DNA of 64,000 nt from Bacteroidota bacterium (GTDB lineage: Bacteria > Bacteroidota > Bacteroidia > 2-12-FULL-35-15). A program made the position numbers and the translations under genes. Of the stretch, positions 39,400 through 64,000 are shown piece after piece (position 1 is the stretch's first letter; every line of letters starts with the position of its first letter). The notes beneath the pieces are model-generated. The model did no database searches, had not been told where the DNA came from, and saw only the letters and a list, made by a program, of their open reading frames with translations. The stretch lies in assembly GCA_023251835.1 (NCBI GenBank), contig JAHEXZ010000015.1, positions 25,568 to 89,567 of the forward strand, given 5' to 3'.

Positions 39400-40404
39400 C
39401 TATTCCAGGCATAAACATATTTTTTCTACTGCTGCTGCATCTCCCACACTAATCCGCAATGACTTATCCTGACCAAAAACTTTCAGGTTACAAACTATCA
39501 ATCCGTTAGTTGTAAATTTACTAAATAGTTCTTCTTTTTTATTTTCCGAATCAAAAAATACATACAAAAAATTTCCCTGTGGTGAAATTACATTTAACCC
39601 TGCCTGTTTTAATTTCTCATATAAAATATTTCGGTATTTAGTATTTTTCTTTATACATGATGAAATAAATCTTTTGTCTTTCAGTGATGCAAGTGCTGCA
39701 TCTTCTGAAAGCGAATTGAAGAAAAACGGAATACGGTTTTGTTTTAAGACGTTTGCCATATCTCCTCTCATTATTCCATAACCGATTCTTAAGCCGGCTA
39801 ATCCATATATTTTGGAAAATGTGCGAAGGATAATCAGGTTGGGATATTTTTTCTGAAGAGAAAATGAATCAGGAAAGGATTTATCAGTTACGTATTCACA
39901 ATAGGCTTCATCAATAACAACAATTATTTTCTCAGATATATTTTTCAATAATTGTTCAAGCTGTGAATGGGTAATGATTGTTCCTGTGGGATTATTGGGA
40001 TTGGCAATGAAAATAACTTTGGTTTTTTTAGTGATGAGTTGGAAAATATTTTCTACATCACAAATAAAATCTGTTTGTTTGGCAAAACTATATTTTCTCC
40101 GGTGAGCAGCAGCGAGTTGTTCGTAAGCAACAAAACTCCGCTCAAAAAGTATAATTTCTTCATCAGGCTCAACAAATGTCTGGATAATTCCATCAATTAA
40201 CCTCACTGAGCCTGCACCTACAACAATATCTGTTGCATCAACGTTAAATTTTTCTGCAAGCTTTTCTTCCAGGCGGACAGGCAGTGAAGGATACAGATGT
40301 ACATTTATTAAGCCTTTTTTAATTGTTTTCTGAACTTCTGGAGAACAGCCATGGCTATTTTCATTTGCGTTCAGACGTATTATTGGTTGTTTTTTATTCT
40401 TCAT
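39400..40404 (-). CDS. Class II PLP aminotransferase (HisC/aromatic aminotransferase-like)
   Basis: Contains LNANENSHG, ANPNNPTG, DEAYCEY and TFSKIYGLAGLRIGY (PLP Lys). I prefer the ATG at 40404 (MKNKKQPIIRLNANEN). The longer track ORF overlaps the upstream gene. Confidence 0.8.
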   Translation of the reverse strand: MKNKKQPIIRLNANENSHGCSPEVQKTIKKGLINVHLYPSLPVRLEEKLAEKFNVDATDIVVGAGSVRLIDGIIQTFVEPDEEIILFERSFVAYEQLAAAHRRKYSFAKQTDFICDVENIFQLITKKTKVIFIANPNNPTGTIITHSQLEQLLKNISEKIIVVIDEAYCEYVTDKSFPDSFSLQKKYPNLIILRTFSKIYGLAGLRIGYGIMRGDMANVLKQNRIPFFFNSLSEDAALASLKDKRFISSCIKKNTKYRNILYEKLKQAGLNVISPQGNFLYVFFDSENKKEELFSKFTTNGLIVCNLKVFGQDKSLRISVGDAAAVEKICLCLE

Positions 40405-41284
40405 TTGATAAAATATCTTCAAAAATTCCTTTGCTGATGTTATATAAAACTTCTTTCCTATACCAGGCAGTAGCACGTATATCTGAAATGGGAGAGGCAT
40501 AACCCACTACTTTCTCTGCAAACTCTTTCTTTTCATTTTCAGAAATTTCAAAAATGTTTTTTCCTGCGAGAAATTTGCAGGCGGAATCGGTGGAACGAAT
40601 AGTAGGTGCTGATGAGCCAATTGCTATTCCTGCATGAATAATTTTTCCTTTAATATCAGTTTGAATATGGTATGCCAGCGACACAACAGAACACTCCATT
40701 GATTTACGTGTGCCTATTTTAATGAATCTGGAAAAAATTCTTTTTTTATTTTTTTCATTTCCGCGAATAGAGATGCTGTAAAGCAATTCGCCTCGTTTAA
40801 GAGCTGTAGCTCTTACTCCTGTGTGGAAATCATGAATCGGAATTCTTCTTCTCCTTCCATTTTCATTAATAATCTCACAGTTCGCACCCAATGTCATTAA
40901 CGCACAGGCAATATCTCCGGAAGGTGAAGCTGTACAAAGATTTCCTCCCACAGTAGCTACCTGCCTTATCTGGGTTGATGCAAGATTTAGTGCTGCCTCA
41001 TGTAAAACAGGAAAATTTCTTTTTATTTCTTCGTTCATAACAATATTGTGTGCAGTAACTCTTGAGCCTATTGTTAAACCCTTGGATGTTTTCTTTATCC
41101 CTGTAAATACAGCATCTTTTACCTGTGTAATATTTATCACAGTCAAATTTTCCTCTGGCTTTTTTCTTAGCTCTAATAATAGGTCGGTGCAGCCGGCTCC
41201 AAAACGAAATTTTTTTCTTTTCAAATTTTTTACGACCGAAAGAAGTTCTTTAGTCGTTGTCGGGTTTATGATTTCAAAACTCAT
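40394..41284 (-). CDS. FAD-binding (CoxM/XdhB-type) subunit of the second XDH-family enzyme
   Basis: Contains FGAGCTDL and ATVGGNLCTASPSGD. It has no Cys-rich insertion. Confidence 0.85.
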   Translation of the reverse strand: MSFEIINPTTTKELLSVVKNLKRKKFRFGAGCTDLLLELRKKPEENLTVINITQVKDAVFTGIKKTSKGLTIGSRVTAHNIVMNEEIKRNFPVLHEAALNLASTQIRQVATVGGNLCTASPSGDIACALMTLGANCEIINENGRRRRIPIHDFHTGVRATALKRGELLYSISIRGNEKNKKRIFSRFIKIGTRKSMECSVVSLAYHIQTDIKGKIIHAGIAIGSSAPTIRSTDSACKFLAGKNIFEISENEKKEFAEKVVGYASPISDIRATAWYRKEVLYNISKGIFEDILSNEE

Positions 41285-41294
41285 TTTATTTCAA

Positions 41295-43604
41295 TTAAAT
41301 ATTTTTATGAATTGCTTTCAATACTTTTTCAGGAGTAATTGGCAGCTCAATAATGTCAATATCAAGTGCATTACACACTGCATTTGCAATTGCAGCGGCA
41401 GTGGGAATCAATGGTGCTTCACCAACACCTTTAGCTCCGTAAGGGCCTTGCTTGTCGTTTGTTTCTATCGGAAAAAAATCTATTTCCGGAATATCCGAAG
41501 CAGTAAGCATTTTGTAGTTATGAAAATTCGGATTCAGAATTTTTCCATCTTTCATCAGTAGCTCTTCTGAAAGCGCATAACCCATTCCCTGCAAAATTCC
41601 TCCGTGAATTTGACCATCGAGTAAAAGCGGATTCAGCACTTTTCCCACATCCTGTGCCACCCACACATTTTTTACACTCACATTGCCAGTATAAGTGTCT
41701 ACTTCCACTTCTATTGCCTGCGAAGCAAAAGCATAGGTTCCCGAAACATTCCCTTTGTATTCCTTATTCTGGACCTGGCTGGATGGCTCATAAAAATAAG
41801 AAGCTATTGCCAGTTCGTTCGGATGGGAGAAATGCATTTCACGAACTACTTTGTCGAGGGCAATGCTGTTACCGGATATGCTGGATTTGATGAATCCATT
41901 TTCGTATTCAAATTCTTCATCACTGGTTTTGAGAAGTTCGTTTGCTTTTTTATTTAATTTCTCTTTCAGAATTTTTATTGCACCAAGCAATGAATTTCCG
42001 GCCACAAAGCTGGTACGTGAGGCATGCACTCCCACATCCCAGGGCTTTATATCGGTGTCGGTATTAATAACTTTAATTTTTTTCAAATCAATTCCAAGTT
42101 CTTCCGAAGCAATCATAGCAAGCACAGTTTCTGAACCCTGGCCAATTTCATTGGAACCGGTAATAATCGTACAATATCCGTACGGGTCAATTTTTAGTGT
42201 GGTTCCACAACCGTCAGAACGGTATATTTTTGCACCACCACCTACATGCAACATTGAAGCATAACCGATTCCGCTTACAAACCTCTTTTGAGTGCTTTTT
42301 TTTGATGAGTGTTTGCTCACTTCACTTTTTTGAGTTTTTAATTTTGATTTAGTTATTACTGTTTCCAAACACTCTTTGTGTCCGCAGGTTTCGTAGTGTA
42401 AACCTTGTCCGGTAGTTTCTCCTTTTTCATTTGCGTTCAGCAGACGGATTTCAGCTTTGTCCATACCAATTTCTTCGGCAAGTAAATCAATCATACGCTC
42501 CAAAGCAAAAGTAGCCTGTGGATTTCCGTATCCTCTGAATGAACCCGCAAAAACATTGTTGGTATAAACGGCCGTTGCGTCAAACATGCAGGCACCAACT
42601 TTATATAGCGATGAAAATGCCTGCATAATTACAAACGGAGTAGTTGCACCCCATGAAGTATAAGCTCCATTGTCTTTCACAATATTTATTTCCCGGAAAG
42701 TAAAATTTCCTTTTTTGTCAACTCCCGCAGTTAAATCAATTATCATTGGTTGGCGTGTGGGGGATGCAATAAATTCTTCCTCGCGTGAATAAATTATCTG
42801 AACCGGTCTGCCGGTTTTCATTGAGAGCAACGCACAAATTGGTTCAAATGGATACATATCTAATTTGCTTCCAAACCCCCCTCCAATCACAGGTTGAATG
42901 ATTCTGATGTCGGAAGGATTCATTTTGAGCGCGTGTGCCATGTCGCGCTGATACAAAAACGGAACCTGTGTTGAACTGTAGAGTAAAAGTTTACCATCTG
43001 TTTTATTATAGGATGCGGTGATATTGCTTGTACCCATACAAGCATGTGTCATTCGCGGAAGCGTGAATCTTCTTTTTACAATAGCTGCACTTTTCTTTTT
43101 TTCTTCTTCAAGATTACCGTGTTCATAATGAAATGTTTCCGCAATGTTTTTATTTTGAAATTTTCCTGAAATAAATTTATTAATCTGCGGAGCATCTTCT
43201 TTCAATGCTTCAAACGGCCCATATATTCCTTTTCGGATTTTATATTTTACCTTGATTAGCTTTAGCGCCTGCTGTGCTATTTCTTTTGTTTCGGCTGCTA
43301 TAGCGGCAATTTCATCACGTATACAGTTCACCTCACCTTTTTTCAAAATGGGATGATCGCGCTTATAGCTGATATTATTGGTATCTATATCATCTGCGGT
43401 GATTATGCAAACAACCCCTGGGATTTTTTTGGCTGCGGAAATATCAATAGTAAATTCTGCCGAAGGATGTTCTGTTCGAAGAATTGCACCGTACAACATA
43501 CCCGGCAAAACAATATCGTGACCGTACACGGCCTTTCCTGTAACACGGATGTGTGCATCGTGTTTTGGAGTGGGTTTGCCAATTATTTTCAATTCTTTAA
43601 ACAT
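41295..43604 (-). CDS. Molybdopterin-binding large subunit of the second XDH-family enzyme
   Basis: 769 aa. Contains VIGGGFGSK and GAKGVGEAPLIPTAAAIANAV. Confidence 0.88.
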   Translation of the reverse strand: MFKELKIIGKPTPKHDAHIRVTGKAVYGHDIVLPGMLYGAILRTEHPSAEFTIDISAAKKIPGVVCIITADDIDTNNISYKRDHPILKKGEVNCIRDEIAAIAAETKEIAQQALKLIKVKYKIRKGIYGPFEALKEDAPQINKFISGKFQNKNIAETFHYEHGNLEEEKKKSAAIVKRRFTLPRMTHACMGTSNITASYNKTDGKLLLYSSTQVPFLYQRDMAHALKMNPSDIRIIQPVIGGGFGSKLDMYPFEPICALLSMKTGRPVQIIYSREEEFIASPTRQPMIIDLTAGVDKKGNFTFREINIVKDNGAYTSWGATTPFVIMQAFSSLYKVGACMFDATAVYTNNVFAGSFRGYGNPQATFALERMIDLLAEEIGMDKAEIRLLNANEKGETTGQGLHYETCGHKECLETVITKSKLKTQKSEVSKHSSKKSTQKRFVSGIGYASMLHVGGGAKIYRSDGCGTTLKIDPYGYCTIITGSNEIGQGSETVLAMIASEELGIDLKKIKVINTDTDIKPWDVGVHASRTSFVAGNSLLGAIKILKEKLNKKANELLKTSDEEFEYENGFIKSSISGNSIALDKVVREMHFSHPNELAIASYFYEPSSQVQNKEYKGNVSGTYAFASQAIEVEVDTYTGNVSVKNVWVAQDVGKVLNPLLLDGQIHGGILQGMGYALSEELLMKDGKILNPNFHNYKMLTASDIPEIDFFPIETNDKQGPYGAKGVGEAPLIPTAAAIANAVCNALDIDIIELPITPEKVLKAIHKNI

Positions 43605-43616
43605 AAATTACAGTTA

Positions 43617-44306
43617 TTAATTTAACATCATATAATATTTCGCCTTTCCAAACTCCTTTCGTTCTCTATCATAAAGAGTAATATCAATTGCGCTATACTT
43701 ATCTTTGGGTTGTTTAAACTCTGTTTGAATAAAATATCCTGTCATACTTTGTTTTCCCGCGTATTCATTTACCTTTTGTATTGAATAAATTTTTAATCGT
43801 TGACCATCTATAGAAACATTTATCTCAACACTATCAATATTTGGAGCTATAGAACGAGTAGTCTCATTTTGTTTCCTGTTATCAAGAAATCTTGTTATAC
43901 TCATGGGCCTCATATAGATTGTATATGCAGGAAAAGCTCCTTGAATCTTAAACACATTAACACCATATATTTCTATCTTTTCAATTTGTATATCTATTGT
44001 CAAGTCTTTATGAGCTGGCACATTCCATGTCCAAAATTCAAGATTACTTTTTGCATAATCACTTTTCTTAACAGCACATAAGGCAAAATAATTATTCTTT
44101 TTTGTCTTAAAAGAGTACAATCCACCCTTAGCAGACATTGCTGAATCAACCGTAATAAAATTGGAATCTTTTAACTCAATGGAAACACTATCCATAGGTA
44201 AATTTTCAAAATCAGTGATTTTACCTGAAATCGTTACATAATCCTGATTTTTACATGGTGAAATCAATAAGACGACTCCTGGAATTATAAAGAGTAAGGG
44301 TCTCAT
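43617..44306 (-). CDS. Lipoprotein with CarboxypepD_reg-like beta-sandwich N-domain
   Basis: Has the lipobox LLISPC. ISGKITDFENLPMDSVSIEL...GGLYSF follows. Confidence 0.5.
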   Translation of the reverse strand: MRPLLFIIPGVVLLISPCKNQDYVTISGKITDFENLPMDSVSIELKDSNFITVDSAMSAKGGLYSFKTKKNNYFALCAVKKSDYAKSNLEFWTWNVPAHKDLTIDIQIEKIEIYGVNVFKIQGAFPAYTIYMRPMSITRFLDNRKQNETTRSIAPNIDSVEINVSIDGQRLKIYSIQKVNEYAGKQSMTGYFIQTEFKQPKDKYSAIDITLYDRERKEFGKAKYYMMLN

Positions 44307-44317
44307 AATTTTTTGTA

Positions 44318-44512
44318 TTAGCAGTTATTAATTTTTTGGTTTATACAAATATCTCTATTATTGTATCTGCAAAAACGTGATGTACAGGGCTTCTGTTCCA
44401 CGGTTTCATCGGAAGTAAATTTTTCAGCATGAAGTTTTTGAAACGAAAAAAATACTGTTCCGACAATTGCTGCTGAACATATTTTCAGAAATTCTCTTCG
44501 TGTTCTGTCCAT
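44318..44512 (-). CDS. 64-aa Tat-signal mini-protein with C-terminal 4-Cys segment
   Basis: MDRTRREFLKICSAAIVG gives a perfect T-R-R-x-F-L-K Tat motif. Its ATG directly abuts the stop of the upstream FAD oxidoreductase gene. Confidence 0.6.
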   Translation of the reverse strand: MDRTRREFLKICSAAIVGTVFFSFQKLHAEKFTSDETVEQKPCTSRFCRYNNRDICINQKINNC

Positions 44513-45940
44513 CTATCTTGACTTTGAAAAATATTTTTTTGTTTCATTAGCGGCATTTATTCCTGTAACAATTGCTCCTTCCATACAAGGCATCTCTATC
44601 TCACTACGTATCCAGTCGCCAGCGAGAAAAAGGTTTCTGAAATGTGTTCTCGTTCTTGGTCTGAATTTTACTGTGCCTGGTTCGGTGAGCAGGTAACGTT
44701 CGTGATTTGCTTTGTTCCTGTTGAAGGATTCATGGATGATTCCAGCTTTTCTCGGGTCTTTTGCACCTGGAACTTTGAGAAACGCATTGAAAATTATTTC
44801 TTTTAGTTCATCATCCGTTTTATTTTCGAAAGATGTTTCCTGTCCTACCCATTCAAGAGCAGAACCAATTCCTGGATTATTTTTATACTCGTCCTTAATA
44901 GTTTTATAATCCGCAACACTTCCCATTGGTTCATCAAGTCCATTAATAGTGACAGTTCCGGTTGGCATCACGGATTCTTTTGTCCATACCTGGTAAGAAA
45001 GTGAAACTACGGTTCGCAGATTTTCTATGCTCTTAAACCCATTCCAGAAAAAAGAATCACCCCAGTTCAGTTCCCTAAAGCAATCAGGAGGAATTGCCAG
45101 GATAAGTGCATCTATATTATTTATCTCCTGAATAGAATCCTGTATAACAGGTACAACATCTTTCCACGGTATTGTTCCATATCCATGAATTTTAGCATCC
45201 GGATCACCGATTTTTATACCTGTTATCTTTTGTCCGTCATGGATAAGTTCTGTAAGTTTTTTTTTAATAAAAATTTTTCCTCCAAGTTTTTCAAAATAAT
45301 CTGTAAGCGGTTTAATAATGTTTTCACCATATGTTCCGTTTATGTAAAAATATTTACCCGTTCCAACCGCTTTTCTCACACCCATCAGGGTTAAATAGGT
45401 AGATATTTCATATGGCCAATTGAATGCGGCATCCTGTGAAAAACGAAACCATCTCATCTTTGTTATTTCTTTGTCCATGCCATGTTCAAGTGCCCAGGCA
45501 GTATAACATATATCATCATATTTTTCAATATCCATATCAAGATAAATTGTTTTCGCATTCTTTATCCCGAAATTAGTTATTTTCCTATAGGTGTTAAATG
45601 GGTAAGGTGGATTGGGAATTCGTAAATCAGGAGCAATGGAATGAACTTTTCCCGTGCTTTCTTCATAACATAAATTTATTCTTTTATTTGAAACCAGAGT
45701 CTTTTTTTCTTTCACTCCAGCTCGTTTCAACATTCTTCTCATATTGGTATACGGAGCAAACAGGCCATGCAAGCCATGGTCAATATTAAAACCTTCCGCA
45801 TCGCGCCATGAAGTCGCGCGACCACCCAGGTGATGCCCCATATTGTATAGCCTTACATCAGCATCTTTCATCTCTTCCAGAATTTTGATTCCGGCAGCAA
45901 TTCCGGCAAGCCCTCCTCCTATGATAACCACTTTTTTCAT
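44513..45940 (-). CDS. FAD-dependent oxidoreductase (amine oxidase / phytoene desaturase superfamily), no own signal peptide
   Basis: Contains KKVVIIGGGLAGIAAG and GGRATSWRD..GFNIDHGLH. The C-terminus has LAGDW. Confidence 0.7.
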   Translation of the reverse strand: MKKVVIIGGGLAGIAAGIKILEEMKDADVRLYNMGHHLGGRATSWRDAEGFNIDHGLHGLFAPYTNMRRMLKRAGVKEKKTLVSNKRINLCYEESTGKVHSIAPDLRIPNPPYPFNTYRKITNFGIKNAKTIYLDMDIEKYDDICYTAWALEHGMDKEITKMRWFRFSQDAAFNWPYEISTYLTLMGVRKAVGTGKYFYINGTYGENIIKPLTDYFEKLGGKIFIKKKLTELIHDGQKITGIKIGDPDAKIHGYGTIPWKDVVPVIQDSIQEINNIDALILAIPPDCFRELNWGDSFFWNGFKSIENLRTVVSLSYQVWTKESVMPTGTVTINGLDEPMGSVADYKTIKDEYKNNPGIGSALEWVGQETSFENKTDDELKEIIFNAFLKVPGAKDPRKAGIIHESFNRNKANHERYLLTEPGTVKFRPRTRTHFRNLFLAGDWIRSEIEMPCMEGAIVTGINAANETKKYFSKSR

Positions 45941-47088: not shown

Positions 47089-47619
47089 TTACTCTCTCGA
47101 AATTTTTTCAACTGCGTCAATAATTTTTACGTAACCCGTGCATCTGCACAAATTTCCTTCCAGCCATTTTTTAATTTCATCTCTTGTGGGGATTTCGGAT
47201 TTCGCCTTTCCGGTAGTCTTATGAGAATTCTCGTACCGATTCATCAATCCCTTAATCGACATTGCCATTCCTGATGTACAGAATCCACATTGTACCGCCC
47301 CATTTTGAACAAGTGCATGCTGCACTTCATCTAATGAACCATCGCTTTTTGTCAATCCTTCAATGGTTGTGATTTCTTTTCCGTTTGCATTCACGGCTAA
47401 AAATAAACAGGAGTTTATTGGAGCGCCATTCATAAGCACTGTACAGGCACCACATTCACCTTCATTGCAGCCCGGTTTTGTTCCTTTGAGTTCAAAAACA
47501 TCGCGAATCACATCCAGCAATACGGCTGAAGGTTTTACTTCACAGGAAACTTTTTTTCCGTTGAGCACGAATGAGATTTTATGCAGCGACCCATTTTCCT
47601 TTTTTATTTTCTGTACCAT
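47089..47619 (-). CDS. [2Fe-2S] small subunit (CoxS/XdhC-iron-sulfur type) of an XDH-family enzyme
   Basis: Contains CNEGECGACTV, QCGFCTSGM and NLCRCTGY. Confidence 0.88.
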   Translation of the reverse strand: MVQKIKKENGSLHKISFVLNGKKVSCEVKPSAVLLDVIRDVFELKGTKPGCNEGECGACTVLMNGAPINSCLFLAVNANGKEITTIEGLTKSDGSLDEVQHALVQNGAVQCGFCTSGMAMSIKGLMNRYENSHKTTGKAKSEIPTRDEIKKWLEGNLCRCTGYVKIIDAVEKISRE

Positions 47620-54100: not shown

Positions 54101-54102
54101 TC

Positions 54103-56152: not shown

Positions 56153-56243
56153 TCTTGTTGTGATTACGAATGTTATAATATACTGAACGAATGGGTTTAC
56201 TGGTTTTTGCAAACTCATTCAGTTGAAGTATAAATTACAGAGA

Positions 56244-58325
56244 TTAATTACTCATTACTTTATCATATTCACTTCCCACTCTTCCTTTCCTGCATAGTTT
56301 GGTGACCATAAAATCAGCAGAGTGTTTTGCCTGAATGCTTACGGCTTTATCCAGAGTGGTATTGCACGCTGCTTCCACACAATCGGTTATGGCTTTCATG
56401 GCTTCCCTCATTCCATTTGCATTAGCAAGTAATTTTTCATCAAAAGGAAGTTTTCCTAATGGTTTTTCATCTACTTTTCTCAGAGGCAGAACCGAAGTTC
56501 CTTTCTGTATAATTTGCCATGCTTTCTTCAAACAGTTTTCAAGTGAATCAGAATAATCAGCCAGCCAGCCAACAGTTTCTTTTGCTTTGATTTGTTTTCC
56601 CTGCAACAACATATTCAGCAAATACTTTCTGTCTTCTTTTTTTGCTTTCCGGATTGCCCAATGGCAGCCCTCCATTCCTGGAACTACAGGAAGTGTTACT
56701 TCAGGCATGGAGAAAACTGTATTTTCATCTGCGATAAGATAATGACAATGCATCATTAACTCCAGCATTCCACCCATGCACCGTTTACCGTTTACAAAGC
56801 CAATTGAAATTTCAAATTCGTTATATAATCTCCGTGCAGTTGCCGACCATGTGGAGGCAATGCGTTCGCCTTCTTTCACTTCAGTAATGGCAGGGAAAAA
56901 TTCATTCGTATCAGCACCTACCATTTGGGTGGAAAGATGAAAATCGCTTGTAACAATCACGCGCCTTATTTTATTTTTCTTCAGCCAGTCAATGGCACGG
57001 TTTATTTCGTCATTCACATCGCTGTTATAGCTCTCGCGGGAGATAGTAATCACTCCTGCTTTTCCATCATGTTCAGCATTTACATAAAGCTGCTGCCATT
57101 CGGGCGAATTTATCTTTTTAAATTCTTCAGGATACCATTTTGTTTTTGCTGATTCGGGATGAAGTTTGTGATATTTTTTTACGGTATTAATTACCTCATC
57201 GGTACCGAGGTTTCTTGCCATAGCAAGAAGTCCTTTTGTAAACTGCGCGCAGAGCTCTGCAATGGCATTCATCGAAGAAAGATTGGAGCGCTTTTCTTTC
57301 AGCATAATGGAAGTCATCTGGAAAAGCGGACCAAGAATCATAGTTCGTAAAATTTCATCATCATCTTTATCCTTGCTCCAGTTCACCATTGGTCGGAAAT
57401 GGTCAAGAGGATACCAGTTTTGTCCACTGTCTTTGTGTTCATCTAAATCTTTCGTAGGTGTGAAAAGAGCTCCATAATTTTTGCTTAAGTGGTACAGGCA
57501 GGACCAAGTCAGAAAATTTGCGCCTTTAGCTCCGATAGCATCATGTGCACGGAAAGGATTAGGGCCAACGAGCTGACGGATGTATTTATCTGCTTTCCAG
57601 AAAGGTGTATTAGTTTGTTCGTGATAACGTAAGCCTGCGAGCATGAGCCCACAGAAGAATACATCGAGCACAAACGACCAGTCATCGCTCACTTCAACAG
57701 GAATCAACCCAAGCGACCAAAGTAATTGAGTAGCTGCTGATGGTTTGTCTTCAACGATTTCAAAAATTTTATTGATTTCGTGTGGGAAAGCAGGATGAGC
57801 GATGTTCACTCCCAGTTGTGATGAAGGAAAACCGGAAGTAACAGAATAAATGGTGATACCGGGAAATTTTTTCCTAAAAAGTTCATAGTGTCCTTTTTTC
57901 AATTCAAGAATTTCAGGAATTGCTTCTAAAAGGAATTTTGGTTTATAAGCTGCCAGAGAATCAGGAAGTGTTTTTCCATCATAGGTGAGACGGATAATAT
58001 TTTTCATGATATTATCCGCATCTTCTTTTCCGAATGCTTTTTGCAAACCACTATATTGCTTTCCTATTCCATCGGGAGCACCAGGCAAATCGAGTGCGAT
58101 GATTGGGATATTGTAAGGCAAAAGTCGTGAAGCAAATTGCATCACTTTTCCTGCACCTACAATTCCGTTGGCTCCGGAAATTACTATGGCTCCTCTGTTG
58201 TTTGGTTTCCCGAAAACTTTGTCAACTAACTCTGAAGTATTCACTGGAAGTTTTCCGTTCTGAAATATTTCTAACACTGTTCCTAATCCTAGGGTTTCAA
58301 GTGTTGATTGTCGCATTGAATTCAT
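56244..58325 (-). CDS. Bifunctional 3-hydroxyacyl-CoA dehydrogenase (N-terminal) / enoyl-CoA hydratase-fold (C-terminal) protein
   Basis: The N-terminus has GANGIVGAGKV and EAIPEILELKK..TSG...HPAFP. The C-terminal half is crotonase-like (GVITISRESYN...). Confidence 0.65.
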   Translation of the reverse strand: MNSMRQSTLETLGLGTVLEIFQNGKLPVNTSELVDKVFGKPNNRGAIVISGANGIVGAGKVMQFASRLLPYNIPIIALDLPGAPDGIGKQYSGLQKAFGKEDADNIMKNIIRLTYDGKTLPDSLAAYKPKFLLEAIPEILELKKGHYELFRKKFPGITIYSVTSGFPSSQLGVNIAHPAFPHEINKIFEIVEDKPSAATQLLWSLGLIPVEVSDDWSFVLDVFFCGLMLAGLRYHEQTNTPFWKADKYIRQLVGPNPFRAHDAIGAKGANFLTWSCLYHLSKNYGALFTPTKDLDEHKDSGQNWYPLDHFRPMVNWSKDKDDDEILRTMILGPLFQMTSIMLKEKRSNLSSMNAIAELCAQFTKGLLAMARNLGTDEVINTVKKYHKLHPESAKTKWYPEEFKKINSPEWQQLYVNAEHDGKAGVITISRESYNSDVNDEINRAIDWLKKNKIRRVIVTSDFHLSTQMVGADTNEFFPAITEVKEGERIASTWSATARRLYNEFEISIGFVNGKRCMGGMLELMMHCHYLIADENTVFSMPEVTLPVVPGMEGCHWAIRKAKKEDRKYLLNMLLQGKQIKAKETVGWLADYSDSLENCLKKAWQIIQKGTSVLPLRKVDEKPLGKLPFDEKLLANANGMREAMKAITDCVEAACNTTLDKAVSIQAKHSADFMVTKLCRKGRVGSEYDKVMSN

Positions 58326-58346
58326 AGCTGAACTATTTTTTTGTTA

Positions 58347-59546
58347 TTAACTTACATGAAAAATTGATGCAATACCCACATCGCCTGCTGCGCAACCGAA
58401 AACCAGCACATAACCACCTCCTAAATCAACCGCTTCTTCCAATGCTTCCATCAAAATTCTGGTCAGAGTTGGTCCCTGTGGGTGCCCAAATACGAGTGGG
58501 CTTCCTGTGTTGTTCATTTTATGCCAGTCATAATTCATCACTTTGGCAAAGATGGCATCATTCACTGCAAACGGATTATGATCCTTTACCACTTTTATTT
58601 CTTTCATGGTTAACCCTGTTTGCTTTAGAAGTTTTTGTACTGCAAGTGCTGGTGCTTCAGGCATTAGTGAAGGGTTAGTACGTACTTCTGTTTTTGCTAT
58701 GAATGAAATTTCTATTTCAGGTTTTTTGCTTAATTGCTTAGCTTTTTCTTTTGTTGTCACAAGCAATGTTGCCATTCCATCTGCTGCGTGAGTTTGAGTT
58801 CCGCCAGTTACGCAGGAATCTAGTTCCCTCATGGCACGTAAAGCGTCAATGGAAATTTTCTTTACACCTGCATCTTCGGTAACCCATCCTGCAGATTTAC
58901 CCTGCACATTTAAGATTTCGAAAGGGAAAGCAACCCTGTTAAGGAAACCTGATTCTTTTGCGTTGAAATATTGTTCATAACGATAACAAGTAAGTTCATC
59001 CACTTCTTTTTTAGCAATCTTGTATTTTCTTGCAGCGAACCCTGCGGCATTCAGCATGGCTTTTCCGGTGGAGGGGTCGAACCCGAAGTTGTCCCATACA
59101 TCAGCGAGAACTTCAGTGCGTTTGTAACTTCTCCTTTCAGGAAAAACTCCCACGGGAGAATCGCTTGTGCGGTCAAAAGTGAGAACGCCAACGGCCTCGC
59201 TCGCTCCGCTCTGTACTTGCGCCCCGGCAAGAATCACTGCCTGTAATCCGGTTGCACATGCTTGTTCCATCTGAAAGCCGGGCAAACGTTTTCCCATACA
59301 GTTCGCAACTACAGTTGCGTTCCAGAATTTAAAATGCCACGGAACAGTTGAGCCTATAATCAGATAATCCAGATTGCTCACCGGAACTTTTCTTTTGTTC
59401 ATAATGCGTGCCATAGCCTCACCTGCAAACTGGCCTATATTTACCTCCGCCAGTGGAGACGTTTGCCATGCAGGAAAATAACTGCATCCCCATGTGCCGT
59501 AAGGAATATAGGCATTGGGAAACATTTTTTGAATTTTGTTTTTCAT
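58347..59546 (-). CDS. Thiolase-family acyltransferase
   Basis: Contains EQACATGLQAV (nucleophile Cys), GHPQGPT and FGCAAGD. Confidence 0.75.
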   Translation of the reverse strand: MKNKIQKMFPNAYIPYGTWGCSYFPAWQTSPLAEVNIGQFAGEAMARIMNKRKVPVSNLDYLIIGSTVPWHFKFWNATVVANCMGKRLPGFQMEQACATGLQAVILAGAQVQSGASEAVGVLTFDRTSDSPVGVFPERRSYKRTEVLADVWDNFGFDPSTGKAMLNAAGFAARKYKIAKKEVDELTCYRYEQYFNAKESGFLNRVAFPFEILNVQGKSAGWVTEDAGVKKISIDALRAMRELDSCVTGGTQTHAADGMATLLVTTKEKAKQLSKKPEIEISFIAKTEVRTNPSLMPEAPALAVQKLLKQTGLTMKEIKVVKDHNPFAVNDAIFAKVMNYDWHKMNNTGSPLVFGHPQGPTLTRILMEALEEAVDLGGGYVLVFGCAAGDVGIASIFHVS

Positions 59547-59558
59547 ACTCTGTTTGTT

Positions 59559-60689
59559 TTATAATCCGAGTTCCTTTGCAATATTTATTTTAAGAATTTC
59601 TGAAGTGCCTCCTCCAATAAGTGTAAAGCGTGAATCGCGGAGGTATCTTTCAATGTTGTATTCTGCTGCATAGCCGTAAGAAGCAAGTATACGACTGGCT
59701 TCATCGCAAATATGCACTGCACATTCTGAAGCATAAAGTTTTGCAATCATTGCTTCTTTTTGCCGGGGAAGATTTTTGTCGCTCAATGTTGCGGCATATA
59801 AAACATAATGCTTTGCGGTTTCTAATTGAACAGCCATGTCAGCAAACTTCATTTGTATTGCCTGAAATTTTCCAATCGGTTTTCCGAACTGTACTCTGGT
59901 TTTGGCATATTCAATCGTATCTTCGTAAGCTGCAGTAGCAACACCAATGGCAAGCGCGGCAGTCATAACCCTTATTTCTGCAAGAATTTCACGCAAACAT
60001 TTTGTTCCTTCACCAATCCCTCCGAGCAAATAATTTTTCGGAAGTTCCACATCTATAAAACCAACTTCACTGGTAACCGAAGCGCGAACACCCATTTTAT
60101 CAATACTTTTTCCAACCATTACACCTTTAATATTGGATGGAACAAAAAAGATAGAGAGTTGCTCGTGGTTATCTGTTCGAGCAAGTACGGTGAAGAAATC
60201 TGCAACAGGAGCTGATGTAACCCAGGTTTTTTGTCCATTAAGAATAAATCCGCTATCGGTAACTTTTGCTGTGGTTTTGATGGACATCAGGTCACTTCCT
60301 GCATTTGGCTCGGTCATACATATACCGCCAATCTTGTTTCCTTTTAATGCTTCTGAAAAGTATTTCTCTTTGATTTCATTATCTCCGAAACGATACAGAA
60401 AATAAGTTCCCATTAGCGATTGCATGGTACAGGCGGCAGCAAGTGAAAGCGAACCTTTTGCTAATTCAATAACGGCAAGCGAATATGAAACAATATCCAA
60501 CCCACTTCCTCCGGCACTTTCAGGGTAACGCATTCCGAAAAATCCAAGTTCGCCAACTTGTTTGAAAAGTTCTTTTGGGAATTTTTTTTCTTCATCCAAT
60601 GTTGCGGCAACAGGTTTCACTTTCTTCACGGAAAATTCACGGAAGGTTTGTTGAATTTGTTTTTGTACGTCTGTTAACTCAAAATCCAT
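59559..60689 (-). CDS. Acyl-CoA dehydrogenase
   Basis: Contains MTEPNAGSD and GQKTWVTS. The C-terminus has GGGTSEI. 376 aa. Confidence 0.88.
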   Translation of the reverse strand: MDFELTDVQKQIQQTFREFSVKKVKPVAATLDEEKKFPKELFKQVGELGFFGMRYPESAGGSGLDIVSYSLAVIELAKGSLSLAAACTMQSLMGTYFLYRFGDNEIKEKYFSEALKGNKIGGICMTEPNAGSDLMSIKTTAKVTDSGFILNGQKTWVTSAPVADFFTVLARTDNHEQLSIFFVPSNIKGVMVGKSIDKMGVRASVTSEVGFIDVELPKNYLLGGIGEGTKCLREILAEIRVMTAALAIGVATAAYEDTIEYAKTRVQFGKPIGKFQAIQMKFADMAVQLETAKHYVLYAATLSDKNLPRQKEAMIAKLYASECAVHICDEASRILASYGYAAEYNIERYLRDSRFTLIGGGTSEILKINIAKELGL

Positions 60690-60760
60690 TTTTCTTTTTT
60701 ACAGCTGCGATACTAAAGCACTACGTTATCTTTATGGTTTTATGGTTTCGCGATAAACAA

Positions 60761-61162
60761 TTATTCCGGTATTACAGCTATCGCTTCAATTTCAATTACC
60801 GCAGGGTGGTCCAATAAATCAACCACGAAAATCATACTCATACAGGGATAATGGCTACCTATAATTTCTTTCCACACTTTTCCAAGTTCTTTGCGCGAAG
60901 CAAGATATTGTTCACGGTCTTTGCAGAAGCAGGTCATCTTGCAGATATGCTCTGTTTTTCCACCTGCTTTTTTTACAATTGCCACAATATTTTTCAGAGC
61001 TTGTTCAAACTGCGGAACAAGTTTGTCGCTGGCGAATTTTTCTTCCGGAGTCCAGCCCACCTGTCCGGCCATATATAGCGTTTTCCCTTTTGCGGCAAGA
61101 ATACCGTTAGAATATCCTTTCGGAACAGGCCAGCCATCGGGTAATATAATCTCGTGAACCAT
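60761..61162 (-). CDS. RidA/YjgF-family protein
   Basis: 133 aa. The pattern is YMAGQVG...C.....VEIEAIAV. Confidence 0.75.
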   Translation of the reverse strand: MVHEIILPDGWPVPKGYSNGILAAKGKTLYMAGQVGWTPEEKFASDKLVPQFEQALKNIVAIVKKAGGKTEHICKMTCFCKDREQYLASRKELGKVWKEIIGSHYPCMSMIFVVDLLDHPAVIEIEAIAVIPE

Positions 61163-61187
61163 TTGCTTTGCTTTTACCGCAAGGTTG

Positions 61188-62915
61188 CTAAGACGCTAAG
61201 CTCTCTTTGCGTCTTGGCGACTTTGTGGTGAATTTTGTTTTAACACCATAAAATTTTGCTGCCATTTTTGCTGAAACCACTTCATTCTTCACATCCCACA
61301 GAACTTTTTCTTTGTTGCGTTTTTTCGGGTTTCCATAACCGCCTCCACCGCCTGCAATCTGACGATATAATGTTCCATCAGGGATTCCGTAAATCATATC
61401 CTTGCTCATCGGAACAATTTTTTTTCCGTTCTTGTATTTTAATCCAATTGTATTTAGCACACTTCCTTTGCCTCCGAAAAGTCCGTAATTTTTTTCCACA
61501 TCTCCATCACCGAAAACAACCATTGTAGTATCACCGCCACGCAGTAAAATTTTTGTTTCTGTTCCCAAACCACCCCGCCATTGTCCGGCACCTCCTGAAT
61601 CACACAAAAATTCATGCTGCAAAATAAGGTGAGGAGTTTGCTGTTCATACATTTCGTAATCCTGGTCGAGCACACCTCCTGAAGCGTCAATCATGCCGAT
61701 ATGGTCATAACCGTCATCGTCTTTGAGAGCTCCGCTTCCGCCTTTTAGGCCCATAAAGCAGATGTCGACATATTTTTTTTCTGTGCGTGGATGAATACCC
61801 GTAAAGAGTGAACACAAAAGATGATTCCACCCGGCAGTGATTCGGTCAGGAATAGCAGGCCCTAATGCTTTGAAAATAGAATCAGCTACCTGTGGGCATA
61901 AATGATTTCCGAAAGTGGTGGCAGCAGGATATGATGCATTGAGAATTGTTCCTTCGGGTACAATGTATTTCAGTGGCTTAATCATTCCTTCATTGTGTGG
62001 GATGTTCGGATTCACCATTTGCAGAAAGGTGAGCGTAATGGCAGAGCAGGTAGATGTATATGTTCCGTTTACAAATCCCTTTGTTTGAGGAGATGATTTT
62101 GAGAAATCAAAAGTGATTTCTTCATCTTTTACCGTGATTTTTGCGCGAATAGGAAATTTACTGCCCTTGTGTTTTCCATCATAATACACCATGCTTTTTC
62201 CTTCGTATATGCCGTTGGGGATATTTTTTATTTCGGCACGCATCATTTTTTCGGTAGAGTTGAACAATGCCTGCTTGTGTGTTTCAAATTTTTCCAGTCC
62301 GTATTTTTCAACGAATGCACTCAATCTTCTTTCACCCAGCGTACATGCGCCAATTTGCGCCTTTATGTCTTCCTGCACCATCTGCAAACGAATATTGGCA
62401 AAAATCAGATTCCAGACATCTTTTCTCAGTTTTCCTTTTTCATACAATTTCACTGCGGGAATGCGAATTGCTTCCTGCCATACTTCAGTAGCATTCGGAT
62501 TGTAACCACCTTGTACTGCACCACCAATATCGGCCTGGTGACCTTTGGCTGCCGACCATCCAACTAATGTGTTTTTTAAAAAAATGGGTTTGAAAATCGC
62601 TACATCATTGTTCTGATTTCCCATAGAGAAAACATCGTTGTGAATGATTACATCGCCTTCGTGAATATCATCACCGTATTGTTTCAGAATTTCTTTACAG
62701 ACGGGCCCGAGTGAAAAAGAAAGAATAGGAAGGTTTTCGGTTTGTTCCAGCATTTGTCCTCTTGCATCATACAAGCCCGTTACAAAATCCTTCGCTTCAC
62801 ACAAAATGGGCGAACGTGTTGTTTTGGTGAGTGAAATGCTCATCTCATCCGTGATAGACTTGAATGCGCGTTGGAAAATTGAAACCAATATTTTGTCAAT
62901 CTGCATTTGCTTCAA
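61188..62915 (-). CDS. Hydantoinase B/oxoprolinase-family (HyuB-type) subunit
   Basis: 575 aa. The N-terminal FQRAFKSITDEMSISLTKTTRSPILCEAKDF pattern is typical of HyuB. Confidence 0.8.
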   Translation of the reverse strand: MKQMQIDKILVSIFQRAFKSITDEMSISLTKTTRSPILCEAKDFVTGLYDARGQMLEQTENLPILSFSLGPVCKEILKQYGDDIHEGDVIIHNDVFSMGNQNNDVAIFKPIFLKNTLVGWSAAKGHQADIGGAVQGGYNPNATEVWQEAIRIPAVKLYEKGKLRKDVWNLIFANIRLQMVQEDIKAQIGACTLGERRLSAFVEKYGLEKFETHKQALFNSTEKMMRAEIKNIPNGIYEGKSMVYYDGKHKGSKFPIRAKITVKDEEITFDFSKSSPQTKGFVNGTYTSTCSAITLTFLQMVNPNIPHNEGMIKPLKYIVPEGTILNASYPAATTFGNHLCPQVADSIFKALGPAIPDRITAGWNHLLCSLFTGIHPRTEKKYVDICFMGLKGGSGALKDDDGYDHIGMIDASGGVLDQDYEMYEQQTPHLILQHEFLCDSGGAGQWRGGLGTETKILLRGGDTTMVVFGDGDVEKNYGLFGGKGSVLNTIGLKYKNGKKIVPMSKDMIYGIPDGTLYRQIAGGGGGYGNPKKRNKEKVLWDVKNEVVSAKMAAKFYGVKTKFTTKSPRRKESLAS

Positions 62916-64000
62916 TTAAATTTTTATTTAATGAAAATCCGTTTGGAAACTTTACTTTATCATACACGATGAACGACCCGAAATCATCTACCACACAATC
63001 ATAACTTTCACTTACAAAAACTGAAGTAGTAATTTTTTCAATTATACAAGGGCCTTTGAGATGCGTTCCGAAAATCGGTTTGTCGCCATCGTATACAGCA
63101 ACTTTTTTCATTTGATTTTTTTCAGGGATATAAACTTCGCGATGCTCTTTTATAGCTGATTCTGCTGAAACCGATTTTGTGGAGGATGATAAAAATTTGG
63201 GTCGCTCTGTTTTTCCTGTCACTCGTAGACGTACATTAATCAATTCCAATTCTGTTCCTTCTTCCTTCAGCGAATAACCAAACTGGCGGTTGTGTTCTTT
63301 GTGGAATTCTTCAAAAATAGCTGAGAGATTGAAATTCATCACATCATCCCATTCACACTCCAACTGTACTTCGTGATATTGCCCTAAATAGCGTAAATCC
63401 AGAATGGGATAAAAAGAAATGTGTTCACGCGAAACACCTTCTTCTACAAGCAGTGCATGAATTCCTTCCTCTTTCATTCCATTGAAAAGCGAAAGAAATT
63501 TTTTTCGGTCGAGATTTTTGAAAGAAGTAAAATACGAACGGATATAATCGTGTTTCAAATCACCAAGAAGCATTCCTGCAGCACAGAAAATGGAAGAAAC
63601 ATTCGGAACAAGGAACATTGGTATTTCCAGCTCCTTACAGATTTCGGAAGAATGAATAGAACCGGCACCTCCTGCTACAATGAATAAAAATTCTCTTGGG
63701 TCGTAACCGCGCTCTACAGAAATTTCTCTGACACCCTGAGCCATATTGCTGTTAATGACGCGGTACATCCCCGCTGCGGTTTCCAGAACAGATAGTCCGA
63801 GCCTGGAAGCGAGTTCATTTTTGATTGCTTTCTCAGCTTTCGATTTATTAAGTTTTAATTTTCCTCCGGCAAAAAAATCAGGATTGAGGTAACCAAGCAT
63901 CAAGTCGGCATCGGTACATGCGGGAATTTTCCCTCCGCGTTCGTAGCACACTGGTCCGGGCAATGCGCCTGCGCTTTGTGGCCCCATCTGCAGCAACCCT
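62896..64000 (-). CDS. Hydantoinase A/oxoprolinase-family (HyuA-type) subunit, 5' end beyond window
   Basis: Contains GPQSAGALPGPVCYERGG..PACTDADLMLG. The reading frame is open to the window edge. It overlaps hyuB by 20 nt. Confidence 0.8.
   Translation of the reverse strand, partial: GLLQMGPQSAGALPGPVCYERGGKIPACTDADLMLGYLNPDFFAGGKLKLNKSKAEKAIKNELASRLGLSVLETAAGMYRVINSNMAQGVREISVERGYDPREFLFIVAGGAGSIHSSEICKELEIPMFLVPNVSSIFCAAGMLLGDLKHDYIRSYFTSFKNLDRKKFLSLFNGMKEEGIHALLVEEGVSREHISFYPILDLRYLGQYHEVQLECEWDDVMNFNLSAIFEEFHKEHNRQFGYSLKEEGTELELINVRLRVTGKTERPKFLSSSTKSVSAESAIKEHREVYIPEKNQMKKVAVYDGDKPIFGTHLKGPCIIEKITTSVFVSESYDCVVDDFGSFIVYDKVKFPNGFSLNKNLIEANAD

Follow-up and report, generated by a model that had tools for sequence, protein, structure and literature searches.

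A predicted tryptophan-fed variant of the oxygen-independent indoleacetate pathway in a conserved operon of uncultured Bacteroidota

Introduction

The oxygen-independent degradation of indoleacetate through the iaa pathway has been studied in Aromatoleum, and operons of this kind have been predicted in sulfate reducers and in one archaeon. The characterised pathway starts from free indoleacetate (IAA), which the ligase IaaB converts to indoleacetyl-CoA (PMC8360864). Further down, the CoA-transferase IaaL acts on (2-aminophenyl)succinyl-CoA, the B12-dependent mutase IaaGH produces (2-aminobenzyl)malonyl-CoA, and IaaF oxidises and decarboxylates the latter to 2-aminocinnamoyl-CoA, which then undergoes beta-oxidation (PMC8360864). 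IaaL is also capable of intermolecular CoA transfer with succinate and succinyl-CoA (PMC8360864). In the present work, we analyse a stretch of 64,000 nucleotides (nt) of a Bacteroidota bacterium (GCA_023251835.1, contig JAHEXZ010000015.1), hereafter the window, whose last 24.6 kb carry a long array of genes on a single strand. We propose that this array is very probably one catabolic operon for a tryptophan-fed variant of the iaa pathway, the product of which would be passed on to the benzoyl-CoA pathway.

A second point of reference is a locus of Ferroglobus placidus DSM 10642 (CP001899.1: 1992453-2013595), which encodes a 3-hydroxyacyl-CoA dehydrogenase (HADH), an SCP-x thiolase, a DUF35 protein, HyuA, HyuB, IaaF, both mutase subunits and an AOR-family enzyme. 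In the literature searched, outside of which lay subscription papers such as the F. placidus study on aromatic amino acids, neither an iaa operon fed by an indolepyruvate:ferredoxin oxidoreductase (IOR) nor an iaa pathway of Bacteroidota is described.

Layout and conservation of the array

The window corresponds to positions 25568 to 89567 of its contig, C166, in a genome of 4.1 Mb and 171 contigs that is 96.6% complete and originates from a groundwater metagenome. Gene families were assigned by Pfam and NCBIfam scans of the translated open reading frames (ORFs). Twenty minus-strand ORFs follow each other without interruption from position 39400 to the end of the window; the coordinates of the array genes given below are all on that strand. 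In the order of transcription, they encode HyuA, HyuB, RidA, an acyl-CoA dehydrogenase (ACAD), a thiolase, a protein of 693 amino acids (aa) with a crotonase domain, the mutase subunits MutS and MutL, a family III CoA-transferase, MiaA, IorA (1149 aa), IorB, a [2Fe-2S] subunit, a CrtC-like protein, a flavoprotein, a 64-aa and a 229-aa protein, the Mo and FAD subunits of a molybdoenzyme and a HisC-type aminotransferase. According to the contig sequence, HyuA runs past the end of the window, the whole gene occupying 62896-65082 (728 aa). The 5 kb examined upstream of it contain genes for an OmpR-type response regulator and a histidine kinase, and a convergent gene (38426-39382) closes the array at its other end.

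The spacing lies between -20 and 25 nt at 16 of the 19 junctions. The three wider gaps separate IorB from IorA (71 nt), IorA from MiaA (82 nt) and ACAD from RidA (71 nt), and an apparent gap of 206 nt (44307-44512) is occupied by the ORF of the 64-aa protein (44318-44512), the twentieth gene. An earlier sequence-only reading of this DNA had already counted twenty genes on one strand, separated by mostly short or overlapping gaps, and had put the largest gaps at 71-91 nt; apart from these extreme values its description holds. The gene families it named all agree with the Pfam and NCBIfam assignments, which refine them for the aminotransferase, the HADH/enoyl-CoA hydratase (ECH) protein, IorA and the exported cassette. 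Scans for sigma-70 promoters and terminators returned no excess, such scans being uninformative for Bacteroidota.

The fused IorA described below was used as a query against one genome per species (185,579 species) and returned 50 loci from 49 other genomes. The carriers are Bacteroidota metagenome-assembled genomes labelled Chitinophagales, Flavobacteriales, Saprospiraceae, Cytophagales, Vicingaceae and Crocinitomicaceae, together with Ignavibacteria bacterium CHB1. Wherever the contigs of these 50 loci reach, the order HyuA-HyuB-RidA-ACAD-(beta-oxidation)-MutS-MutL-CoA-transferase-IorA-IorB-2Fe2S-Mo-FAD-HisC is kept. An orthologue of HyuB is present in only one of 401 evenly sampled Bacteroidota, the genome under study itself, and is missing from a sampled genome of the same genus (G363). 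A cluster so rare within the phylum and yet so strictly syntenic from order to order cannot be a chance run of co-directional genes. On these comparative grounds, the array is a real and widely conserved operon of uncultured Bacteroidota. The sequence-only reading had named a dispersal of the orthologous genes among relatives as something that would refute it; this comparison found them linked throughout and did not refute it.

Proposed pathway

The substrates of the individual steps were transferred from the Aromatoleum work, and the route outlined here is accordingly a prediction. The HisC-type aminotransferase would convert tryptophan to indolepyruvate, from which IorAB would form indoleacetyl-CoA directly, in place of the ligase IaaB. 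The three-subunit molybdoenzyme, a member of the xanthine dehydrogenase (Xdh) family, would use water to hydroxylate C2 of the pyrrole ring and thus yield 2-oxoindoleacetyl-CoA, and RidA may aid the tautomerisation from enol to lactam. HyuAB would then open the gamma-lactam at the expense of ATP, giving (2-aminophenyl)succinyl-CoA, the family III CoA-transferase would shift the CoA onto the other carboxyl, and the split B12 mutase would rearrange the product to (2-aminobenzyl)malonyl-CoA. Oxidation and decarboxylation by the ACAD would produce 2-aminocinnamoyl-CoA, which the putative HADH/hydratase fusion and the thiolase would turn into acetyl-CoA and 2-aminobenzoyl-CoA. The latter would finally be handed to a class I benzoyl-CoA reductase (BCR) and to the enzymes Dch, Had and Oah, all encoded on the same contig. 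The miaA gene and a four-gene cassette for the CrtC-like protein, the flavoprotein, a Tat peptide and a lipoprotein would be later insertions riding in the operon.

The sequence-only reading was unable to match this combination of genes to a described pathway. The signature motif of the ACAD and the orthology to the F. placidus locus, both presented below, match it to the iaa route to 2-aminobenzoyl-CoA. One of the three speculative schemes that had been offered, in which an aminotransferase and an IOR yield an arylacyl-CoA that the molybdoenzyme then modifies, turns out to be essentially right in the light of this match.

The acyl-CoA dehydrogenase and the mutase

In all IaaF orthologues, which are without exception encoded in iaa operons, a GGG motif replaces the catalytic YEG (Schuhle et al. 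2021; PMC8360864). These GGG-type enzymes take derivatives of malonyl-CoA whose substituents are of aryl size (PMC8360864). The window ACAD (59559..60689) has GGG where YEG is expected and ends in ...RFTLIGGGTSEIL, read as ...LIGGGTSEIL; the motif is present in 25 of 25 full-length ACAD orthologues of the related loci. The enzyme shares 53% identity over its whole length with WP_012966786.1, the IaaF of F. placidus (an accession confirmed as IaaF_Fp of PMC8360864), which was found through a search seeded with an archaeal ACAD of the GGG type. The two proteins are reciprocal best hits and the next ACAD of the studied genome reaches 38.6% identity. When the window ACAD itself served as the query, only near-identical Bacteroidota orthologues were returned. 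The nearest relatives found outside this phylum, on Nezhaarchaeota-like and Dormibacteraeota contigs (43-47% identity), adjoin genes for HyuAB, the mutase and a family III CoA-transferase. A tblastn search of plasmids produced generic ACADs of at most 42% identity, the top one on a Massilia plasmid and outside any iaa cluster. The window ACAD is thus predicted, from its motif and its closest relative, to be a decarboxylating enzyme of the IaaF type.

The mutase leads to the same locus. Its B12-binding small subunit MutS, of the IaaG/H type (55769..56218; PF02310; TIGR00640, 107 bits), is 43% identical to the small subunit of the F. placidus cluster. The large subunit MutL (54103..55749; PF01642, 645 bits), which is predicted to catalyse the step from (2-aminophenyl)succinyl-CoA to (2-aminobenzyl)malonyl-CoA, shares 59-60% identity (595-640 bits) with its F. 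placidus counterpart, the two being reciprocal best hits, and only 46-47% with a second split mutase of its own genome (C157:47-3523). MutL keeps the Tyr (RQYAGF) and the Arg (EFIGRG) that bind the free carboxylate in enzymes of the methylmalonyl-CoA mutase (MCM) type, as would be expected for an arylsuccinyl-CoA substrate. The nearest solved structure is that of HcmA (489 bits), followed by that of human MCM (430 bits).

Neither a MeaB nor an epimerase gene lies beside the mutase genes of the window. A function as methylmalonyl-CoA mutase in the routing of propionate was rejected on this basis, together with the closer relationship to the F. placidus iaa mutase and the existence of another split mutase in the genome. 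This outcome divides the second scheme of the sequence-only reading, in which HyuAB opened a lactam with ATP while RidA quenched an enamine, and beta-oxidation then delivered propionyl-CoA bound for succinyl-CoA. The ATP-dependent lactam opening, with RidA encoded nearby, survives; the propionyl-CoA branch falls, given a mutase orthologous to the arylsuccinyl-CoA/benzylmalonyl-CoA mutase of iaa loci and an ACAD of the IaaF type. The second split mutase of the genome adjoins a HisC-like aminotransferase gene (TIGR01141, 121 bits), and the two may form a second aminotransferase-mutase module.

Proposed entry through an aminotransferase and a fused oxidoreductase

The last gene of the array encodes the HisC-family aminotransferase (39400..40404, with a probable start at ATG 40404; TIGR01141, 298 bits for a cut-off of 277), the predicted source of indolepyruvate, and a gene of this type occupies the same position in about 42 loci. 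Neither hisD nor any other gene of HisC grade was found in the 96.6%-complete genome, which argues against a role of the enzyme in histidine biosynthesis; this assignment was rejected for the same reason and in view of the fixed place of the gene at the end of the operon. HisC-family enzymes can act as aromatic aminotransferases, the HisC of B. subtilis being an example.

IorA (48297..51746; TIGR03336, 592 bits; PRK12771, 285 bits), the predicted catalyst of the conversion of indolepyruvate and CoA to indoleacetyl-CoA and CO2, has an unusual composition. Its IOR-alpha part (residues 17-612) is followed by a GltD/NfnB-like module with Fer4_20 and FAD/NAD(P)H domains (residues ~620-1040) and by a C-terminal ferredoxin domain with two [4Fe-4S] clusters (Fer4, residues 1096-1143). 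The 50 nearest relatives of IorA all have this fused architecture and all are encoded inside the operon. The inserted module suggests a direct reduction of NAD(P)+, and in the literature searched we did not find an IOR with a GltD-like insertion described. The beta subunit IorB (47638..48225; PF01558; NF005323, 147 bits) is encoded next to IorA. In practically every locus iorAB and hisC are conserved, and the genes overlap or stand close together.

Between positions 39400 and 65082 and in the 5 kb upstream, there is no gene for an IaaB-type AMP-binding ligase, a solute-binding protein, an ABC transporter or a GntR regulator. Since an IOR yields an arylacetyl-CoA directly, the ligase would be dispensable, and with the HisC-type enzyme and the IOR in place of IaaB, tryptophan entering by way of indolepyruvate is the likely feed. 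The lack of IaaB, of the IaaM-type protein, of the ABC transporter and of GntR is the reason for classing the array as a variant of the iaa cluster. In eight genomes a gene for TrpB2 (NF009057, 729 bits) immediately precedes HyuA or is located between HyuB and RidA, and two genes of the tryptophanase/tyrosine-phenol-lyase family lie beside the operon in one further genome.

Probable fate of the product

The stretch of the contig that precedes the window (C166:399-25567, covering the loci L052 and L053) is an anaerobic aromatic island. It encodes a fused Oah-Dch, Had, BcrD, BcrA, BcrB, BcrC, the Mo-cofactor cytidylyltransferase MocA and an EbdAB/PadBCD-like enzyme of the type II dimethyl sulfoxide reductase family. 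Four of these products score above their NCBIfam cut-offs (given in brackets after the bits), namely BcrB (TIGR02260, 694 [487]), BcrC (TIGR02263, 473 [421]), Had (TIGR03201, 451 [339]) and Oah (TIGR03200, 618 [464]); BcrA remains below (440 [578]), and so does BcrD by a slight margin (311.7 [312.85]). Genes for secreted proteins with tails of the type IX secretion system are interspersed in the island.

The association extends to the relatives. Oah (TIGR03200) was detected in 45 of the 49 cluster genomes and in 7 of the 401 sampled Bacteroidota, including the genome under study; the enrichment is highly significant when the 45 of 49 are compared to 6 of the 400 other sampled genomes (Fisher exact test, p = 2e-50). 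BcrB exceeds its cut-off in 44 of 50 cluster genomes. In eight loci the hisC gene is followed by genes for a thiolase, a Zn-alcohol-dehydrogenase-type protein and two crotonases (Had-Oah-Dch), and in several genomes a single contig carries the operon, the BCR genes and Had/Oah/Dch within ~40-60 kb. This nearly obligate co-occurrence with genes of the benzoyl-CoA pathway implies a benzenoid product and would fit a CoA thioester, 2-aminobenzoyl-CoA, dearomatised by a class I reductase. The genome also carries three heme-copper oxidase genes, which would fit a facultative anaerobe.

Another Xdh-family enzyme, similar to 4-hydroxybenzoyl-CoA reductase (4-HBCR), is encoded at the opposite end of the window (836-4662, plus strand) by a fused [2Fe-2S] and Mo subunit of 938 aa and an FAD subunit (TIGR03194, 805 bits for a cut-off of 995). 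It was found in 45 of the 49 cluster genomes and also in five of the six Oah-positive sampled genomes that lack HyuB, which shows that it tracks the benzoyl-CoA pathway in general; its candidacy as an iaa-specific reductase deaminating 2-aminobenzoyl-CoA was thereby weakened. In L076 and L078, orthologues lie immediately upstream of the operon. Next to this enzyme and to a histidine kinase, the window encodes a single-chain pyruvate:ferredoxin oxidoreductase (PFOR) of the NifJ type (5907-9434, plus strand; 1175 aa) that could supply reduced ferredoxin to the benzoyl-CoA reductase.

Farther upstream on the same contig (L052:5143-10017) lies an unusual set of genes. They code for a single HGD-D dehydratase/reductase-like subunit of 410 aa, for a protein of 601-615 aa that joins an activase ATPase to a 2-oxoacid reductase domain of the ApbA/PanE type, and for an AMP ligase; the C-terminal ~145 aa of this ligase correspond to a separate ORF of 155 aa in relatives. 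In four relatives (L086-L089) this set is found directly upstream of HyuA, and it may represent a dehydratase branch of the aryllactate type. Two of these loci also contain, upstream of the operon, a fragment or subunit of an ADP-forming acyl-CoA synthetase (L086:55-1041, L087:12-1079), which is reminiscent of the arylacetyl-CoA synthetases by which archaea conserve ATP from the products of IORs.

The remaining enzymes of the predicted route

HyuA, the first gene product (62896..64000, where the window ends; Pfam Hydant_A_N, Hydantoinase_A and Hydant_A_C), is the predicted alpha subunit of a 2-oxoindoleacetyl-CoA gamma-lactamase. Its identity to the HyuA encoded in the iaa locus of F. placidus is 38%, and its genome has no other protein of this kind. 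The beta subunit HyuB (61188..62915; PF02538, 481 bits; caprolactamase-beta-like, 411 bits) is 76-89% identical to that of the relatives and 31.5% to that of F. placidus. A Hyu subclade has been named '2-oxoindoleacetyl-CoA gamma-lactamases' (PMC5214803), and the window HyuAB may belong to it. The HyuA orthologue of Ignavibacteria CHB1 (L067, G412:C11:106027-108132) contains one in-frame TGA, for which a sequencing error, a pseudogene or recoding are all possible explanations.

The RidA-family protein (60761..61162; PF01042) is encoded directly after HyuB, or behind an inserted gene, in about 30 loci. It might assist the enol/keto tautomerisation between 2-hydroxyindole- and 2-oxoindole-acetyl-CoA or quench a reactive intermediate. 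The family III CoA-transferase of the IaaL type (52805..54100; PF02515, 199 bits) adjoins the mutase in at least 45 loci and is 38% identical to the enzyme of an archaeal iaa-type locus (L056); its predicted function is to transfer CoA from one carboxyl of (2-aminophenyl)succinate to the other.

The molybdoenzyme is composed of a [2Fe-2S] subunit (47089..47619; Fer2_2, Fer2), a Mo (molybdopterin) subunit (41295..43604; Ald_Xan_dh_C, MoCoBD_1, MoCoBD_2) and an FAD subunit (40394..41284; FAD_binding_5, CO_deh_flav_C). The best NCBIfam model for the Mo subunit, although below its cut-off (546 bits), is that of the alpha subunit of 4-hydroxybenzoyl-CoA reductase, an enzyme acting on a CoA thioester. 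In the archaeal loci an AOR-family enzyme takes the place of this molybdoenzyme. The genes for the [2Fe-2S] and Mo subunits are contiguous in nearly all relatives. Eight of these (L004, L005, L007, L010, L011, L014, L021 and L029) have a gene for a CysK-like pyridoxal phosphate protein of ~291 aa between the Mo and FAD genes, and L008 carries a SufS-like cysteine desulfurase gene (L008:17285-18760) inside the set. Both kinds of protein may supply the sulfur of the sulfido ligand on the Mo cofactor.

Beta-oxidation would be completed by two proteins. The thiolase (58347..59546; Thiolase_N, Thiolase_C; TIGR01930, 156 bits) is predicted to cleave 3-oxo-3-(2-aminophenyl)propionyl-CoA into 2-aminobenzoyl-CoA and acetyl-CoA. 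The 693-aa protein (56244..58325) has a crotonase domain at residues 430-610, and its N-terminal half had no match in Pfam, NCBIfam or PDB sequence searches. Its N-terminus contains the dinucleotide-binding Rossmann motif GANGIVGAG, and Foldseek matches its AlphaFold model (pLDDT 61) to FadJ, FadB, MFE1 and stand-alone HADHs; from this motif and these matches, the protein is read as a divergent fusion of an N-terminal HADH and a C-terminal enoyl-CoA hydratase. Most relatives differ in their beta-oxidation genes: an SCP-x thiolase accompanies an HMGCS-like::DUF35 protein, and a canonical HADH::ECH fusion of 672 aa is encoded upstream of HyuA. The Aromatoleum cluster is said to include a hydratase/dehydrogenase fusion and a thiolase as well.

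Insertions in the operon

Two parts of the array are rare among its relatives. The first encodes a MiaA paralogue of the tRNA dimethylallyltransferase family (51829..52800; TIGR00174, 196 bits for a cut-off of 149), found at this position in three of the 50 loci (L039, L047 and L049), which are distant (53-55% identity). The second MiaA of the genome is encoded on contig C95 and is 31% identical. That distant loci share the position suggests an old association that was repeatedly lost.

The second, a cassette at 43617-47079, splits the molybdoenzyme genes. It codes for a lipoprotein of the CrtC-like lipocalin hydratase family with a lipoprotein signal peptide (45937..47079; PF07143, PF17186), a flavoprotein of the amine-oxidase/phytoene-desaturase family (44513..45940; PF01593, NAD_binding_8), the 64-aa protein with a Tat signal (44318..44512; MDRTRREFLK..., a tail with four Cys and no family match) and a 229-aa protein with a lipoprotein-type N-terminus and no Pfam or NCBIfam match (43617..44306). 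The cassette had been described as exported, which is correct for the two lipoproteins and for the Tat-signal protein; the flavoprotein starts with its FAD-binding fold and has no signal peptide, and the 64-aa protein is possibly a 'hitch-hiker' partner that carries it across the membrane. The pair formed by the CrtC-like protein and the flavoprotein recurs in one of the 50 loci (L007) and the 229-aa protein in none. From these counts, both MiaA and the cassette are regarded as insertions outside the core pathway. An isoprenoid or carotenoid function of the cassette as the core of the operon was rejected because of its occurrence in a single related locus, and with it goes the third scheme of the sequence-only reading, the degradation of an isoprenoid begun by a periplasmic hydratase.

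The relatives have insertions of their own, absent from the window. Five of them have, between IorA and IorB, a conserved ORF of ~138 aa (WPYxIKPxE...DGILVM) that matches no family (L003:13320-13787, L007:13260-13781, L008:13365-13781, L032:13381-13803 and L040:1935-2342). A protein of 1465 aa with two ATPase domains of the acyl-CoA-dehydratase-activase type is encoded between the CoA-transferase and IorA in L003 (5481-9878), L006 and L007. Small ORFs in the gaps of the operon, some belonging to a family with a GxxExxY motif and others resembling proteins of the four-helix-bundle or 23S rRNA intervening-sequence kind, look like selfish insertions (L014:3720-4097, L021:1974-2387, L039:11517-11945, L047:3572-3997, L048:564-983, L004:9588-9962 and 13528-13893, L028:388-801, L044:8379-8738).

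Alternative explanations

Several points weigh against the array being a tryptophan-fed iaa operon. The orthology argument rests on the F. placidus locus, which has an AOR-family enzyme and, within 21 kb, no family III CoA-transferase. The early steps in Aromatoleum are reportedly catalysed by a Mo hydroxylase of the Xdh family and then by a hydantoinase-like ring-opening enzyme. The GGG motif is not exclusive to IaaF, as two proteins, P0164 and P0322 (38-39% identical), carry it in other contexts, for which reason its use as a sole diagnostic was rejected. The HADH assignment depends on a mediocre structural model, and what RidA and the GltD-like insertion do is likewise inferred. Metatranscriptome contigs in three sets from the same groundwater study included none from this region, a result that does not prove silence. 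TrpB2 and tryptophanase are both absent from the genome under study. Finally, IORs usually accept all three arylpyruvates, and in view of this breadth the first two enzymes may not be specific for tryptophan.

This last point leads to a possible, if doubtful, alternative that extends the proposed pathway more than it replaces it. The aminotransferase and the IOR would serve phenylalanine, tyrosine and tryptophan, only the molybdoenzyme, Hyu, transferase, mutase and ACAD genes would be specific for indole, and the operon would be one hub of a larger island that also leads from phenylalanine and tyrosine to benzoyl-CoA. Besides the generally broad substrate range of IORs, the 4-HBCR-like (805 bits), PFOR-type and EbdAB/PadBCD-like enzymes of the same contig would suit such a hub, as would its HGD-D dehydratase-like gene, ApbA::activase fusion and AMP ligase, all the more since such genes sit directly upstream of the operon in relatives. 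However, the 4-HBCR-like enzyme follows the benzoyl-CoA pathway rather than the operon, the fused IorA occurs solely inside this operon, and the TrpB2 and tryptophanase neighbours point to tryptophan and indole.

It is improbable that the operon serves free indoleacetate (auxin) taken up from outside, or some other indole-3-alkanoate, which the family III CoA-transferase would activate, with the IOR and the aminotransferase as accessories. The characterised pathway does begin with free IAA (PMC8360864), IaaL does transfer CoA between molecules, and the operon lacks an amino-acid transporter; yet an IaaB-type ligase, an IaaM-type protein, an ABC transporter and GntR are equally missing in and beside it, IorAB and HisC are conserved and closely packed with it almost everywhere, and TrpB2 and tryptophanase are frequent neighbours. 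Still less credence can be given to another N-heterocyclic 2-oxoacid, such as histidine-derived imidazolepyruvate or a compound of the kynurenine or quinoline type, degraded by the same logic of hydroxylation, lactam opening and rearrangement. The aminotransferase scores as a HisC and Xdh-family enzymes hydroxylate many N-heterocycles, but the ACAD and the mutase have their reciprocal best hits in the iaa locus of F. placidus, GGG-type IaaF accepts aryl-sized malonyl-CoA derivatives, the co-occurrence with the benzoyl-CoA pathway calls for a benzenoid product, and TrpB2 and tryptophanase genes are neighbours of the operon. That unrelated housekeeping units (hisC, miaA, methylmalonyl-CoA mutase, generic beta-oxidation and xanthine dehydrogenase) merely share a direction is hardly conceivable and was not supported by comparative genomics: HisC and MiaA pass NCBIfam equivalog cut-offs and the mutase keeps its MCM-type active-site residues, but the order persists in 49 genomes of two classes or phyla, the cluster is absent from 400 of 401 sampled Bacteroidota including the same-genus G363, hisD is missing, the genome has another MiaA and another split mutase elsewhere, and 16 of 19 junctions span no more than 25 nt.

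Implications

A tryptophan-fed iaa operon would connect the chemistry studied in Aromatoleum to tryptophan in at least 49 further uncultured species of Bacteroidota and Ignavibacteria from groundwater, lakes, soils and engineered systems. Bacteroidota are mostly known as degraders of polymers; with such an operon and the ATP-dependent benzoyl-CoA reductase pathway that almost always accompanies it, the phylum would possess a complete path from an aromatic amino acid down to acetyl-CoA that needs no oxygen. Automatic annotation labels the key genes 'histidinol-phosphate transaminase', 'methylmalonyl-CoA mutase', 'xanthine dehydrogenase' and 'butyryl-CoA dehydrogenase'. The operon also provides compact candidates for iaa enzymes that are biochemically uncharacterised, namely the ATP-dependent lactamase and the Mo hydroxylase of indoleacetyl-CoA, in addition to the unusual fusion of an IOR with a flavoprotein. 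Taken jointly, and quite tentatively, three further ideas may be put forward: IorA might found a new class of IORs, either tied to NAD(P) or splitting electrons between NAD(P)+ and a low-potential ferredoxin destined for BCR; RidA might be a 2-hydroxyindole/oxindole-acetyl-CoA tautomerase; and these Bacteroidota, as facultative aerobes, might mineralise tryptophan, as well as indole by way of TrpB2, without any oxygenase, an ability for which we saw no report from this phylum in the literature searched.

Comparison with known systems

The iaa clusters of Aromatoleum aromaticum EbN1 and A. evansii KB740 resemble the array in their enzyme set and predicted product, the roles of IaaL, IaaGH and IaaF being those established in PMC8360864 and the rest being as reported. 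They differ by possessing IaaB, IaaM with an ABC transporter, and GntR, whereas the window has the HisC-type and fused IorAB entry and an added RidA. The hosts are Betaproteobacteria in one case and Bacteroidota in the other, the gene orders are unlike, and the comparison was made by enzyme family and not by sequence.

With the F. placidus locus the likeness is at the sequence level, with identities to the window of 38% for HyuA, 31.5% for HyuB, 53% for the ACAD, 43% for MutS and 59-60% for MutL. Its arrangement of SCP-x thiolase and DUF35 is common to most of the Bacteroidota relatives. On the other hand, the Xdh-family enzyme of the window has as its counterpart in this locus an AOR-family enzyme with a ferredoxin, RidA is replaced by a V4R protein, the HADH has a gene to itself, and neither an IOR nor an aminotransferase nor a family III CoA-transferase is encoded within the 21 kb examined.

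The mutase shares its fold and its split layout of large and small subunits with MCM and 2-hydroxyisobutyryl-CoA mutase (PDB 4r3u, 2xij, 1req), and is set apart by its predicted substrate, an aryl-substituted succinyl-CoA. The downstream genes of the contig, BcrCBAD, Dch, Had and Oah, correspond to the class I benzoyl-CoA pathway of the Thauera aromatica type; here Oah and Dch are fused, and the subunit genes are spread over ~24 kb outside the array, with secreted-protein genes between them. As for the entry enzyme, pyridine-nucleotide-coupled 2-oxoacid oxidoreductases are represented by the phenylglyoxylate:NAD+ oxidoreductase PadEFGHI and by pyruvate:NADP+ oxidoreductase. IorA bears a general resemblance to both in combining a 2-oxoacid:ferredoxin-oxidoreductase core with an FAD/NAD(P)H module. 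It differs in that its module is of the GltD/NfnB type and lies inside IorA itself, between the thiamine pyrophosphate domain and the C-terminal ferredoxin domain.

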